Shown piece after piece: positions 5,664 to 40,981 of a stretch of 40,981 nt of DNA. The position numbers were made by a program, and so were the translations under genes. The stretch lies in sequence record NC_025445.1, one strand, 5' to 3'. Under the pieces are notes generated by a model, which did no database searches, was not told where the DNA came from, and saw only the letters and a program-made list of their open reading frames with translations. This DNA comes from Escherichia phage J8-65. Each line of letters starts with the position of its first letter. The stretch's first letter is position 1.

Positions 5664-5903
5664 ATGAAAGTAACTGTATTGCACAACATCGGAGGAGATA
5701 TGCTCAAAGTAATATTGTTGTTCCTGCTTCTGGTAATTATTTGGGGAGCGTTATGGGTGGGTCTTGCATCACTGGTGCTTATCCCTGCGGTCGGTGAGTC
5801 AGCCACTTCAACACTGGGCACACTGCTCGGCATGTTGGTGGGCTGGGGTCTGATGCAGTTGAGCCTGAGTGTAGGCCAGAATCGGGGGTGGATTAAATGG
5901 TGA
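5664..5903 (+). CDS. small membrane protein with two predicted TM helices (79 aa)
   Basis: ATG 5664; VILLFLLLVIIWGALWVGLASLVLIPAV and LGTLLGMLVGWGLMQLSLSV hydrophobic segments. Confidence 0.55.
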   Translation: MKVTVLHNIGGDMLKVILLFLLLVIIWGALWVGLASLVLIPAVGESATSTLGTLLGMLVGWGLMQLSLSVGQNRGWIKW

Positions 5904-36341: not shown

Positions 36342-36632
36342 ATGGCATCCGTGAATAAGCAGCTCGATGGGCTGCACCGGATGCTGGTTGAGTATCTGAC
36401 CACTCGGCTGTCTGAGTGCATGAAGCCCGGTAACGAGCCAATGCCAGCAGCCGAGCTGTCGGTACTTCGCCAGTTCCTGAAAGACAATGGCATCCAAGCA
36501 GATGCTGACCACGCCGACGACCTGCTGGCGCTGCAAGAGCAGCTCAACAAAGAGAAGTCGGATACGGAGCGGAAGTCCATCATGGACTCTGCCATCAAAG
36601 CAATTGCAGAAGATAGCGGGATGATGCACTAA
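36342..36632 (+). CDS. terminase small subunit (96 aa)
   Basis: size and position as T7 gp18; AAGGAG RBS. Confidence 0.7.
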   Translation: MASVNKQLDGLHRMLVEYLTTRLSECMKPGNEPMPAAELSVLRQFLKDNGIQADADHADDLLALQEQLNKEKSDTERKSIMDSAIKAIAEDSGMMH

Positions 36633-38392
36633 TGGATTTACAACGCCGCATGGTGATGGCAGGAATCGTTCGCGCACACTACGAGAACAACTTCCCGCTG
36701 TTCCTGCATGACTACTTCGCATGGCTGGGCTTTGACCTCACTGAAATGCAGCTCGATATTGGCCGCTACATGGCCGACCGGACGCTCAAGAACAAGTGCG
36801 TCATGGCTCAGCGCGGTGAGGCCAAGTCCACCATCGGCATTGCCCGTGCCCTGTATGAGTTCGTCCAGATGCCTAACGCCACCGTGCTGCTGGTATCTGG
36901 TTCTGACGACTATGCGGGTACGCTCTCGCACGCCATCGTATCTGCCATTATGCAATGGGACAGGTTGGAATGGCTGCGCCCTGAAACTCGCGCTGGCGCA
37001 CGTACCTCTTATACAGACGGTTTCGATGTACACCACGCATTTCGTATTCCTGATAAACAGCCCTCTGTCAAAGCGGTCGGTATCTTCGGCCAGTTGCAGG
37101 GGAACCACGTATCGCTGTTGATTGCCGATGACGTGGAGACTACCAGTAACGGTAGCTCTCCTGCCAACCGCGCCCGTATCAACACCCTGACCAAAGAGTT
37201 CGCGGCTATCGCCAACGACGGCGCAGAGATTCTGTACCTCGGCACGCCGCAGACTCAGGATTCCATCTACAACACGCTCCCGCAGCGTGGCTTCGACGTT
37301 CGCATCTGGCCCGGTCGTTTCCCAACGGTTGAGGAAGAAGAACGCTACGGCGGCTGTCTGGCCCCGTGGATTAAGCAGAAGATGGATGGCCACCCTGAAC
37401 TGCGTACTGGTTACGGTATCCTTGGGAACCGTGGTGCGCAGACTGACCCTCAGCGTTACTCCGAAGAGAAGCAGCTACAGAACGAACGAGACTACCAGCA
37501 GGCAGGCTTCCAGCTACAGTTCATGCTGGACACGTCGCTGTCAGATGCACTGAAACAGACTCTGCATATCCGGGATGTTATCTTCTTCCACGGCTCGCCG
37601 CAGTCTGCACCGGAGTATCTGCACTGGTCGAATCATTCGCGTCACTTGGCCGAGCTGCCAATGGACTTCCCACTCGCTCGCGCCCAGCTCTATCTGGCCG
37701 CTGACTTCTCTGAGACGTATGTACCATTCACGAATACCAAGGCGTTTCTTGACCCTGCTGGTGGTGGGTCGGACGAATCCGTTCTCTTCGCCACAGCTTC
37801 TATCGGCCCGTTTATCCACGTCATCGGTATGCACGTCTACCACGGCGGCCAGACGGAAGAGAACATCAAGGCGGCGGTAGAGTGGTGCCACGAGCTGGGT
37901 GTCCAGCACATCACCATTGAGGACAACATGGGCCACGGTGCCGTGACCAACATGTACCGTGGTGAGATTAAGCGTCAAGGACTGACAATCGGCTGTGAGG
38001 GTATTTACTCCAGCGGCCAGAAAGAAGTGCGTATCATCAATCGGTTGAGTCCTATCCTCCAGCGCCACCGCGTGGTAATCCACTGGTCGGTTGTTGAGGA
38101 AGACCTGCGCCTGTGCCGGGCCATGAACAACGGTGGCCGGGAATATAGCCTGTTCTGGCAGATGCAGAACTTGACGCAGGACAAAGGCTCCATTCCGCAC
38201 GATGACCGCATCGAAACCCTATCCGCTGCCGTGTATCTCCACGCCGAGGTACTCCAGCAAGACGAACATGAAGAGGCCCAAAAGCGTGAAGTGGCCGCCG
38301 CTCGTGAGTTTGTTGCCAACCCAATGGGGTACGACGACTCGAAGTGGCGCAGTCATAAGCGTGTCCGTGGCACTCGTCGGAGAATCCGCTAA
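36632..38392 (+). CDS. terminase large subunit (586 aa)
   Basis: same length as T7 gp19; ATPase-like N-terminus and DPAGGGSDES nuclease-like motif. Confidence 0.85.
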   Translation: MDLQRRMVMAGIVRAHYENNFPLFLHDYFAWLGFDLTEMQLDIGRYMADRTLKNKCVMAQRGEAKSTIGIARALYEFVQMPNATVLLVSGSDDYAGTLSHAIVSAIMQWDRLEWLRPETRAGARTSYTDGFDVHHAFRIPDKQPSVKAVGIFGQLQGNHVSLLIADDVETTSNGSSPANRARINTLTKEFAAIANDGAEILYLGTPQTQDSIYNTLPQRGFDVRIWPGRFPTVEEEERYGGCLAPWIKQKMDGHPELRTGYGILGNRGAQTDPQRYSEEKQLQNERDYQQAGFQLQFMLDTSLSDALKQTLHIRDVIFFHGSPQSAPEYLHWSNHSRHLAELPMDFPLARAQLYLAADFSETYVPFTNTKAFLDPAGGGSDESVLFATASIGPFIHVIGMHVYHGGQTEENIKAAVEWCHELGVQHITIEDNMGHGAVTNMYRGEIKRQGLTIGCEGIYSSGQKEVRIINRLSPILQRHRVVIHWSVVEEDLRLCRAMNNGGREYSLFWQMQNLTQDKGSIPHDDRIETLSAAVYLHAEVLQQDEHEEAQKREVAAAREFVANPMGYDDSKWRSHKRVRGTRRRIR

Positions 38393-39063
38393 TGTCTTTG
38401 ATTTCTATCACTAATCAGCAGCGGTACGATATTGGCTACCGTGCCAACATCGCCGCCAATCTGACCCAACGCTTCGTGAACAACACGAAGACACTGACGG
38501 CTGAGCAGGCTGCGCCAATCGACGCGGCCATTACCCAGCTCATGACGGCTCTGGAAGCCGCTGGCTACACCTCTGTACCGGAAGGCTCTGCCATCGTCGC
38601 AGACGGCGCTGCAACCACTGTGGTGAACGCGAACGGTACTGTGCAGAAGGCTGCCACCTTCGACGTTAACGGTGAGACGGTTACTGTCGCCCTGCCTGCT
38701 ACTGTCGGTATGAAGTCCAACAACGACTCCATCTCTGTGCAGAACGTGAATGGTGCGGCTGGTGTAACCTCCACCTCGTACGTGGACAGCAACGGTGTAC
38801 TGGTCGCCGCCCGGCTGCCAGCAACCACGGCTGTAATCGCCAGTGGCAACAACATCCAGATTCGCAACTCCGCTGGCACCGCCATCGGTAACGCGACCTT
38901 CACCGTATCCAACGGTGTCATCACGTACGGTACACTTCCTGCGACCATTGCTGGCGTAGCGAACGGTGCCACCCTCACTGGTGTAGCGCCGACTGGCACG
39001 TACACCAATACCGTAACCTTCACTGTCGCTGGTGGTGTTATCACTGGCATTGCACTGTCCTAA
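38392..39063 (+). CDS. beta-rich repeat protein, possible fibrous or receptor-binding accessory (223 aa)
   Basis: three internal repeats (ATFDVNGETVTVALPAT / ATFTVSNGVITYGTLPAT / VTFTVAGGVITGIAL); Thr/Val/Gly/Ala-rich. Confidence 0.5.
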   Translation: MSLISITNQQRYDIGYRANIAANLTQRFVNNTKTLTAEQAAPIDAAITQLMTALEAAGYTSVPEGSAIVADGAATTVVNANGTVQKAATFDVNGETVTVALPATVGMKSNNDSISVQNVNGAAGVTSTSYVDSNGVLVAARLPATTAVIASGNNIQIRNSAGTAIGNATFTVSNGVITYGTLPATIAGVANGATLTGVAPTGTYTNTVTFTVAGGVITGIALS

Positions 39064-39074
39064 CGGGAGATTTT

Positions 39075-39260
39075 ATGTCCTTAGCAACTTCTACCGCCGC
39101 TGAGCGTGCGGGACTGGTGGCGGCCTGCAACATGCTGGCCAAATACCTCAACGTGTACACGGAAGACTACCACCTGAATACGGCTGACACTGACCTGCTG
39201 GCTGAGCATCAGGTGTACATCGACCGTGTGAAAGCAGCTACGGCTGCCATCGACGCATAA
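39075..39260 (+). CDS. hypothetical protein (61 aa)
   Basis: GGGAG RBS; no TM segment. Confidence 0.5.
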   Translation: MSLATSTAAERAGLVAACNMLAKYLNVYTEDYHLNTADTDLLAEHQVYIDRVKAATAAIDA

Positions 39261-39270
39261 GAGGTAGCGT

Positions 39271-39762
39271 ATGAAACTGTCTCGGCTATTGGCCGGGGCA
39301 GTCCTCTCATTGTCTCTGACTTTGACGGGCTGCTCCGCAACTAGCGCACTGTCTGCTGTAACTTCGGCTGTCTCTCCTAACAAGCCGGAACTGACGGCAC
39401 AGGTAGGTGCAGAGAACACGAAGCAAGGCATCGGTGTGACTGCGAAACAGTCCGACGAAACCGAAGTCGGTGACGTATCAGGTAACGCGAAAGTGGATAC
39501 CGCTAAACAGGGTAGTAACGCTACGACCGTCAAGGACGTTACAGGCGGCTCTGTAAACGCTTCTAAGCAGGGGTCTCAGATGACCCAAGGGAACGTACAG
39601 GCTAAGACTGTTATCGTCTCACAGAGCGACCCACGCAGCCTATTGTGGGCATTTGGCATGGGCCTTACGTGTATTCTTGGTTTGGTAATGTGGTTTGTAC
39701 CATCTCCGTGGAAGAGGAAGGTAAGAGATGACGGAAGCAAAACGAAAGGAGCCGACTCCTAA
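39271..39762 (+). CDS. candidate unimolecular spanin: lipoprotein with C-terminal TM helix (163 aa)
   Basis: N-terminal signal with lipobox LTLTGC; C-terminal LLWAFGMGLTCILGLVMWFV TM segment then basic tail; topology as phage T1 gp11. Confidence 0.55.
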   Translation: MKLSRLLAGAVLSLSLTLTGCSATSALSAVTSAVSPNKPELTAQVGAENTKQGIGVTAKQSDETEVGDVSGNAKVDTAKQGSNATTVKDVTGGSVNASKQGSQMTQGNVQAKTVIVSQSDPRSLLWAFGMGLTCILGLVMWFVPSPWKRKVRDDGSKTKGADS

Positions 39763-40114
39763 CATCCACTCGCGTATGGGTGCAGTGGAGGCTCGTATGC
39801 AGACCGTAGAACTACGCCTCGACAAACACGAAGTGCAAATCGCTAACCTTGAGAAAGGCGACGCTGCGATGCTCACGAAGCTGGCTGAGAACGACTCGCG
39901 CTGGCAGCAGGTTCAGCAGCAGCTCTTGGTGGTCGAGCAGATTCAGGATATCCAGAGAACTATGAGCCATATCGGTAAGTTGTTTACGGCGGCAGCACAC
40001 GCCGTCAAATGGTGCCTGTTAACCGCATCCCTGTGCAGCGGTGTGTATTTAGCAATTAAGGCTGGCGACCTCACAGCTCTCCAGTCCTTTATCACAAGCA
40101 TTATGGGGATGTAA
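39728..40114 (+). CDS. lysis-cassette membrane protein, candidate atypical holin (128 aa)
   Basis: GAGGAAGG RBS; ~85-aa coiled-coil-like N-terminus then one hydrophobic segment WCLLTASLCSGVYLAI; sits between spanin and endolysin. Confidence 0.45.
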   Translation: MTEAKRKEPTPNIHSRMGAVEARMQTVELRLDKHEVQIANLEKGDAAMLTKLAENDSRWQQVQQQLLVVEQIQDIQRTMSHIGKLFTAAAHAVKWCLLTASLCSGVYLAIKAGDLTALQSFITSIMGM

Positions 40115-40650
40115 TGACTAACTTTGAAATCTGTATGAAGTTCACCGGGCTGGCAGAAGGCGGGTACACCAAGCTGCCCGGTGACACTGGAGGGGAAACG
40201 AATCATGGAATTAGCGACGCTCGTGATGGCAAACTGGATGGCCGAATTTGTGGTGTCCCTACTGGGCTTGGTGGCTCTATTTGTGTGCCTGTCAAACAGC
40301 TCACCAAAGAGCAAGCCAACGCTATCTACCGGGCCGAGTATTTCGACCCCATCAAAGGTGACGAGCTACACCCTGCGATTGCATGTGCCGTGTTCGACTA
40401 CGGTGTCAACTCCGGTATCAGCCGTGCGGCGAAAGCTCTACAGCGGGTATGCGGCGTTGCACAAGACGGGGTTATTGGCCCTGCAACCGTGGCAGCAGCC
40501 AAACGTCTGGAACCTCACTCCGCAGCAGCATCCATCTGTGACCTTCGTATTGCGTTCCTAAAGGCTTCTACAGCCCCGACAATCGTTCGGTATAGGGATG
40601 CCTTGGTTGCCCGTGCAAAACGCTGTAGCGCGTACTGTGCGACGTTATAG
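40114..40650 (+). CDS. endolysin, GH108 muramidase with PG_binding_3-like C-terminal domain (178 aa)
   Basis: N-terminal LAEGGYTKLPGDTGGETNHGI matches the GH108 EGGY motif; C-terminal region resembles PG_binding_3; no N-terminal SAR/TM segment. Confidence 0.75.
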   Translation: MTNFEICMKFTGLAEGGYTKLPGDTGGETNHGISDARDGKLDGRICGVPTGLGGSICVPVKQLTKEQANAIYRAEYFDPIKGDELHPAIACAVFDYGVNSGISRAAKALQRVCGVAQDGVIGPATVAAAKRLEPHSAAASICDLRIAFLKASTAPTIVRYRDALVARAKRCSAYCATL

Positions 40651-40722
40651 GGGCATTGAAAGCTAGGACATTGAACAGGCGTTTCCCGGCTTGAAAATTG
40701 ACTATTTGTGCGTGGGCCTCCC

Positions 40723-40981
40723 TCGACCCGAAGGAGCGCCTGCGCCCCCGTACGCCTGTGCGCGTGCGCGTGCATGACGTGTGCGCATTATGCGTGCGTG
40801 CCTGCGCGTGCGGTATTGCTCGCGTGCGTGCGGTATAGTTCGCGCGTGCCCGTTTCCATTGTCGCGGTGTGGTGCTGTGTGGTGCTGCGTCCTGCTGCTG
40901 CGTGCTGCGCCACTGCTACCACTGGACGCGCCTGCGCTGGGCTGCTGGTGCTGGGCGGTGCTGCTGTGTGTATCGGTGGCT
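40723..40981. repeat. right direct terminal repeat (DTR)
   Basis: identical to 1-259; window ends at last repeat base so the true DTR could be longer. Confidence 0.85.

Follow-up and report, generated by a model that had tools for sequence, protein, structure and literature searches.

The open reading frame at positions 39271–39762 of the Escherichia phage J8-65 genome very probably encodes the phage's unimolecular spanin (u-spanin), a member of the T1 gp11 family and, by sequence homology and by analogy with the T1 protein, a lysis protein predicted to act last and to remove the outer membrane. The protein is already catalogued and is, hence, no discovery: RefSeq lists it as YP_009101394.1 under the name "Rz-like spanin", and Table 5 of Kongari et al. 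(2018, PMC6139136) includes the J8-65 u-spanin, with a length of 163 aa, among 28 T1 gp11 family members. As a relative of the T1 prototype that was catalogued in 2018, it is an ordinary finding. The translated product was identical, residue for residue, to YP_009101394.1/AIM40547.1 in an exact-sequence look-up. The features that bear on the assignment, together with neighbouring ones, are collected in Table 1.

The stretch of DNA analysed here (the window, 40,981 bp) carries exact direct repeats of 259 bp at its two ends and, therefore, represents the complete linear genome of a podophage. These repeats are G+C-rich and contain reiterated GCGTGCG-like runs around 40740–40850. The lysis region is 97.3% identical to that of Escherichia phage smaasur, species Bonnellvirus J865.

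Table 1. Positions of the predicted u-spanin gene, its parts and other features in the 40,981-bp window
Feature	Position	Strand	Description
Predicted u-spanin gene	39271..39762	+	ORF of 163 aa, ATG start; J8-65 YP_009101394.1; homology to T1 gp11; phrog_1804, E 6.3e-37
Predicted lipoprotein signal peptide	39271..39333	+	codons 1–21: MKLSR / LLAGAVLSLSLT / lipobox LTGC with acylatable Cys21
Family signature P39-x-x-TAQVG-x-x-N-x-KQ-x-x-G55	39385..39435	+	membrane-distal periplasmic domain; invariant columns in 27 sequences including T1 gp11
21-aa insertion unit, residues 72–92	39484..39546	+	NAKVDTAKQGSNATTVKDVTG; gap in the alignment with T1 gp11; lengthens the u-spanin beyond the 129–133-aa forms
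Predicted C-terminal transmembrane helix, residues 124–144	39640..39702	+	inner-membrane anchor; Kyte-Doolittle, AF2
Predicted basic cytoplasmic tail and stop codon	39703..39762	+	SPWKRKVRDDGSKTKGADS; final 35 nt shared with the beginning of the gp46 gene
gp46-like orphan gene	39728..40114	+	128 aa (RefSeq: 105 aa from 39797); holin slot by synteny with CB5/KP34
Endolysin gene, GH108 domain	40114..40650	+	178 aa; Pfam PF05838, E 1.5e-21
TerL gene	36632–38392		
223-aa ORF	38392–39063	+	phrog_9732 (N-terminus), E 1.3e-63
61-aa ORF	39075–39260	+	phrog_9732 (N-terminus), E 9.2e-05
Endolysin-embedded +1-frame ORF	40181 (GTG) or 40205 (ATG) to 40561	+	118–126 aa; strong N-terminal hydrophobic segment ELATLVMANWMAEFVVSLLGLVALFVCL
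67-aa ORF	~5700–5903	+	very hydrophobic (MLKVILLFLLLVIIWGALWVGLASLVLIPAVGE...); 2–3 predicted TM segments; early/middle region, just before primase
Direct terminal repeats	1–259 and 40723–40981		259 bp, exact

Family membership and sequence signals of the u-spanin

The T1 protein gp11 is the experimentally defined prototype of its family; Kongari et al. (2018, PMC6139136) found that it complements the lysis defect of lambda RzRz1 in a manner that requires the lipobox Cys, and that its lipobox variants behaved as expected. In a BLASTP comparison, the J8-65 protein and T1 gp11 (YP_003934.1, 43581–43982) share 34% identity over 140 aa (E 7e-16), aligning collinearly from the lipobox to the transmembrane domain (TMD), with the family signature block as the strongest part of the alignment and TAQVGAENTKQ..GVTAK as a near-identical block. 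Both proteins, as well as the CB5 u-spanin, match phrog_1804 ("Rz-like spanin") over the full length of that PHROG (T1 gp11, 9.7e-45; CB5, 4.2e-38; for J8-65 see Table 1). Because a direct identity of 34% falls short of the 40%/40% rule by which Kongari et al. (2018) clustered sequences, membership in the gp11 family is reached via intermediates that are 50–67% identical. These comprise the u-spanins of PhiM1/CB5-like phages (Phimunavirus) and KP34-like phages (Drulisvirus), the 129-aa forms of which are 50–56% identical to the J8-65 protein and occupy a common genomic slot with it, as well as ORF53 of Pantoea phage LIMEzero (188 aa; 67% identity). The likeness to gp11, which the sequence-only reading had proposed from topology, is thus backed by homology as well.

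By tblastn, homologues were found in 476 phage records (Klebsiella 282, Escherichia 77, Pectobacterium 51, and others), where they are annotated as "U-spanin", "putative unimolecular spanin", "Rz-like spanin" or "Rz1A". No model in Pfam or NCBIfam covers the J8-65 u-spanin, PHROGs being the only one of these collections to hold one, and a profile search of the PDB returned no relative with a solved structure.

The arrangement of the polypeptide is that of the T1 prototype, with which it shares a lipobox (LTGC in J8-65, LSGC in gp11), Ser at the +2 position, a Cys-free periplasmic domain, the signature block, a C-terminal TMD and a basic tail. An SD-like element, AGAGGT, is located 5 bases 5' of the ATG. 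Lipoprotein signals were called by a rule-based scan for an n-region, an h-region and a lipobox; here, the n-region MKLSR contributes two K/R residues, LLAGAVLSLSLT constitutes the h-region, and LTGC fits the lipobox pattern [LVI][ASTVI][GAS]C with Cys21 as its cysteine. The +2 residue is Ser22; therefore, the Asp signal for inner-membrane retention is absent. The predicted periplasmic segment of 102–103 residues is rich in S, V, A, T, G, Q and K and free of Cys, the only cysteines of the protein being C21 in the lipobox and C134 within the TMD. The hydrophobic segment LLWAFGMGLTCILGLVMWFVP (residues 124–144) reaches a Kyte-Doolittle maximum of 2.0–2.1, AF2 places the TMD helix at residues 121–142 (pLDDT 75–84), and the 19 residues that follow include 6 K/R versus 3 D/E. 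Hence, both ends of the molecule are as they had been read from the DNA: a lipoprotein signal with the lipobox LTGC on the one side, a hydrophobic helix followed by a basic tail on the other.

Based on an alignment of 27 sequences, AF2 modelled the signal helix, a helix at residues 23–30 and the TMD, at a mean pLDDT of 52.9; for the periplasmic fold of the monomer it gave no confident structure, with pLDDT <50 over residues 31–120. A crude propensity scan points to possible short strands at residues 85–89 and 107–117. The supplement of Kongari et al. (2018, PMC6139136) gives a periplasmic domain of 102 aa for J8-65, with 15 residues predicted as helix and 35 as strand.

The lipoprotein signal is the sole convincing one in the window, as determined by a six-frame scan that covered every ATG, GTG and TTG start. 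The five other, weak matches are distributed over the non-coding minus strand (four) and a 33-aa ORF with a TTG start and AAAC in the place of the lipobox (one); in the phage group of J8-65 the minus strand is gene-free, with all 48 smaasur genes (48/48) lying on one strand. The three features that define the protein are kept in 10 Bonnellvirus genomes of ~80–97% nucleotide identity. On a broader scale, all 119 full-length homologues drawn from a search of 5.8 billion proteins have a Cys at the lipobox position and a C-terminal TMD. The lipobox pattern caught 117 of these, the two missed ones carrying LMGC and LQGC, and a periplasmic Cys occurs in none of the 119 (117 by pattern match, two by inspection of the sequences). 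The +2 residue of the pattern-matched homologues is S (101), A (13) or G (3), and in the remaining two, by inspection, S and A—Asp was never encountered. In the 27-sequence alignment, which includes gp11, residues L18, C21, L27, P39, T42–G46, N49, K51, Q52 and G55 are invariant.

A 21-residue unit and the length of the span

The u-spanins of J8-65 and Limezero were described as "unusually long" by Kongari et al. (2018, PMC6139136). Judging from the sequence alignments, this unusual length is explained by a unit of 21 aa with the consensus NAKV(D/E)xAKQGxxSxTVKDV(S/T)G, which is missing from the 127–136-aa forms, present once in Bonnellvirus and present as two tandem copies in LIMEzero-like proteins; copy numbers of 0, 1 and 2 correspond to length classes of about 129 aa, 162–163 aa and 184–190 aa, respectively. 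Compared to J8-65, T1 gp11 is 30 aa shorter and lacks both the unit (NAKVDTAKQG...VKDVTG) and the extended tail of 19 aa, and the Phimunavirus and Drulisvirus u-spanins, at 127–136 aa, likewise have no extra unit. The cytoplasmic tails of the J8-65 and LIMEzero u-spanins are also longer; that of LIMEzero ORF53, which has two tandem units instead of one, differs from the J8-65 tail in being longer still and T/S-rich.

The two units of LIMEzero resemble each other closely (unit 1 versus unit 2, z=14). In J8-65, the unit bears a resemblance to the segment preceding it, VTAKQSDETEVGDVSG, when residues 50–74 are compared with residues 75–105 (z=3.2, p=0.013).

Lysis gene order and the neighbouring gene gp46

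Downstream of TerL, the genes follow in the order 223-aa ORF, 61-aa ORF, u-spanin, 128-aa ORF (gp46) and 178-aa endolysin, so that the u-spanin gene is situated 352 nt upstream of the GH108 endolysin gene with one membrane-protein gene in between. The order described for PhiM1/CB5-like and KP34-like phages is TerL, small ORF, u-spanin, holin, endolysin (PMC6115819), and the J8-65 cassette is syntenic with the u-spanin, holin and endolysin of CB5 and KP34. This corrects one point of the sequence-only reading, according to which a u-spanin would be an unusual lysis solution for a phiKMV-type phage: J8-65 is a Bonnellvirus rather than a phiKMV-virus, and its relatives—KP34 of Drulisvirus, PhiM1/CB5 of Phimunavirus, and LIMEzero—all carry a u-spanin in the same position after TerL. 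T1 itself is arranged differently, with the spanin gene last (holin, endolysin, spanin), whereas in J8-65 the u-spanin comes first and is combined with a soluble GH108 endolysin.

What does differ from the CB5/KP34-like cassette is the partner module. In Phimunavirus and Drulisvirus, the next genes encode a holin of phrog_20, which has been described as a pinholin, and a SAR endolysin; in J8-65, gp46 and the GH108 endolysin stand in their place, i.e., pinholin and SAR endolysin are replaced relative to that cassette. The same is seen in LIMEzero, the cassette of which is alike, including a gp46 homologue and a GH108-type endolysin. Kongari et al. (2018, PMC6139136) report a pinholin and a SAR endolysin alongside the u-spanin in the cassettes of the T1 family, J8-65 and Limezero being the only exceptions. 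A hydropathy scan of the J8-65 endolysin found no N-terminal TM segment; for this reason, the enzyme is regarded as a canonical and not a SAR endolysin. Its match to PG_binding_3 (PF09374) scores 21.8 bits, under the cutoff of 24.6 bits.

Across the 10 Bonnellvirus genomes, four-fold-site diversity amounts to 0.17 in the endolysin gene, 0.37 in the gp46 gene and 0.22 in the u-spanin gene; the low value for endolysin may reflect a recent exchange or homogenisation of that gene. A promoter and terminator scan of 38300–40981 yielded counts equal to the shuffle expectation. With regard to the two ORFs between TerL and the u-spanin gene, phrog_9732, the N-terminus of which both match, is a family whose annotation names no function; the 223-aa protein is rich in T, V, A, G and N, and the gene ranges from 309 to 681 nt among relatives. 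A kinship between the two ORFs, considered on account of their common PHROG, was rejected, with BLASTP giving no significant pairwise similarity, and the 61-aa ORF has no similarity to CB5 gp55.

No second lipoprotein ORF, and thus no o-spanin candidate, was detected in the six-frame scan of the window, and no candidate for a type-II i-spanin with a periplasmic coiled coil was found in it. The expectation that an embedded Rz1-like ORF would be absent was, hence, correct, and the separate i-spanin/o-spanin pair that had been named as evidence against a u-spanin did not turn up. On the plus strand, an N-terminal TMD is predicted solely for the 67-aa early-region ORF and for the one embedded in the endolysin gene, the latter probably being spurious; judged by eye, the sequence of neither resembles a coiled coil. 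Like the lambda Rz/Rz1 system, for which T1 gp11 can substitute, the u-spanin is expected to combine an outer-membrane lipid anchor with an inner-membrane TMD, to span the murein and to do the same job once the endolysin has acted. In contrast to lambda, J8-65 has a single polypeptide and no coiled-coil i-spanin, embedded gene, periplasmic Cys or disulfide-linked dimers, and sequence similarity between its u-spanin and Rz/Rz1 is not detectable.

The +1-frame ORF within the endolysin gene was weighed as a possible concealed holin or i-spanin. In 10 of 10 Bonnellvirus genomes this frame is open, and synonymous-codon resampling of the J8-65 sequence assigns P=0.008 to its openness, a value that is not significant once 36 genes and two frames are corrected for; moreover, common codons come into play at only about 4 of the 17 codons at risk. 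Four-fold-site diversity within the endolysin gene is the same inside the embedded ORF (0.167) as outside (0.170), no family match was obtained, and in LIMEzero the embedded frame has charged residues in place of the TMD and ends earlier. On the basis of the corrected P, the equal diversity, the lack of a family and the loss of the TMD in LIMEzero, this candidate was rejected, and the ORF is probably due to chance. The 67-aa ORF, for which PHROGs gave no match, presumably corresponds to an unnamed smaasur gene, by position and length; its product could be a membrane protein that serves exclusion or host takeover, or else a holin that has been displaced.

For gp46, AF2 predicts helices at residues 13–112 and 115–127 (pLDDT about 90). 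A Lys-flanked hydrophobic core of 16 residues, WCLLTASLCSGVYLAI, is located at the end of the long helix, as a predicted C-terminal membrane anchor, and is followed by the short amphipathic helix; the core is marginal, falling below the TM threshold of the hydropathy scan. The family is narrow, comprising 32 clusters confined to Bonnellvirus and LIMEzero. Residues 11–24 (PNIHSRMGAVEARM), which precede the RefSeq start M24, vary hardly or not at all throughout the family, LIMEzero included; a 128-aa product starting at 39728 is, therefore, likelier than one of 105 aa. SD-like elements precede both starts, and two translation starts are possible. Searches of the holin families of Pfam and PHROGs gave no match to gp46; a relationship to the CB5 pinholin was rejected for want of similarity, and a Pfam match to XhlA (E 0.013, below the cut-off) was taken as coiled-coil noise.

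Alternative readings, proposed mechanism and implications

The genetic neighbourhood of gp46 is at the root of the rival explanation that fares best, albeit still a very unlikely one: that the 163-aa lipoprotein forms only the outer-membrane half of a pair, with gp46 as an unconventional, inverted i-spanin. The two genes overlap by 35 nt, gp46 is found only alongside the long u-spanin variants, those of Bonnellvirus and LIMEzero, and its AF2 helix of ~100 residues is superficially like the helical periplasmic domain of Rz. Kongari et al. (2018, PMC6139136) remark that an i-spanin held in the inner membrane by its C-terminus is conceivable in principle. However, such a partner is hard to reconcile with the C-terminal TMD of the lipoprotein itself, conserved throughout the 119 homologues, with the ability of the homologue gp11 to work alone in lambda, and with the homologous u-spanins of T1, KP34 and CB5, which occur without gp46. 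Moreover, gp46 has no signal peptide, its charge distribution (2 K/R before versus 1 after the core) weakly favours an N-in orientation, it matches no spanin PHROG, and the periplasmic Cys that is typical of two-component spanins is absent from both proteins.

Phage lipoproteins with a role in exclusion exist, Llp of phage T5 being an example, and T1 itself encodes a Cor protein; nevertheless, it is highly improbable that the J8-65 protein is a non-lysis lipoprotein engaged in superinfection exclusion or receptor blocking in the manner of T5 Llp or Cor. Homology to gp11, a functionally tested spanin, extends over the whole length, and the position next to the endolysin gene is conserved across several genera. 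Exclusion lipoproteins are not known to carry a C-terminal TMD such as that of the J8-65 protein, and without the u-spanin gene the phage would have no means of disrupting the outer membrane. Equally improbable is a decaying remnant whose task was taken over by, for example, a membrane-active peptide or an endolysin tail after the replacement of pinholin and SAR endolysin: although the adjoining holin-endolysin module was indeed swapped relative to relatives and spanin-independent disruptors are known (phiKT gp28), the gene is under clear constraint across the 10 genomes, the amino acid varying at 28 of 150 codons as against variation at 41 of 72 four-fold sites, every genome has preserved the lipobox, the signature motif and the TMD, and the endolysin has no cationic amphipathic tail.

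For the J8-65 protein as a u-spanin, the following course can be envisaged. The precursor would be exported by Sec; Cys21 would be diacylglycerol-modified by Lgt, the signal cleaved by signal peptidase II (LspA) and the Cys then N-acylated by Lnt. As the +2 residue is Ser, the lipid end would be moved to the outer membrane by Lol, while the C-terminal helix would remain anchored in the inner membrane, its basic tail on the cytoplasmic side. With its lipid end in one membrane and its helix in the other, each molecule would bridge the envelope through the murein, threading the peptidoglycan mesh with its Cys-free segment of about 102 residues. We infer both the u-spanin function and the Lol sorting from the gp11 family and from established lipoprotein biology. 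Once a holin has enabled the soluble GH108 endolysin to degrade the murein, the spanins would be free to diffuse laterally and to collapse; the two membranes would thereby be brought into contact, probably fusing, and the cell would burst. This collapse and fusion step is a model; Kongari et al. (2018, PMC6139136) describe the mode of action of u-spanins as still lacking physiological or biochemical data, and a search for newer mechanistic work yielded only reviews and one applied paper on the T1 spanin.

The case of J8-65 demonstrates that a reader provided with the sequence alone is able to recognise u-spanin topology. A holin is annotated in no bonnellvirus, and gp46, which occupies the holin slot, is the obvious holin candidate of these phages. 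It is a tentative and rather speculative thought that the lysis module of J8-65 and LIMEzero, with its span lengthened step by step by 21-aa units and with a soluble GH108 endolysin and gp46 replacing pinholin and SAR endolysin, is re-engineered rather than a plain copy, and that gp46 may represent a new architectural type of holin or of lysis timer, perhaps one with two starts. Furthermore, the family offers a natural series of periplasmic lengths (about 81, 102 and 124 residues), which provides a handle on how span length relates to u-spanin function.
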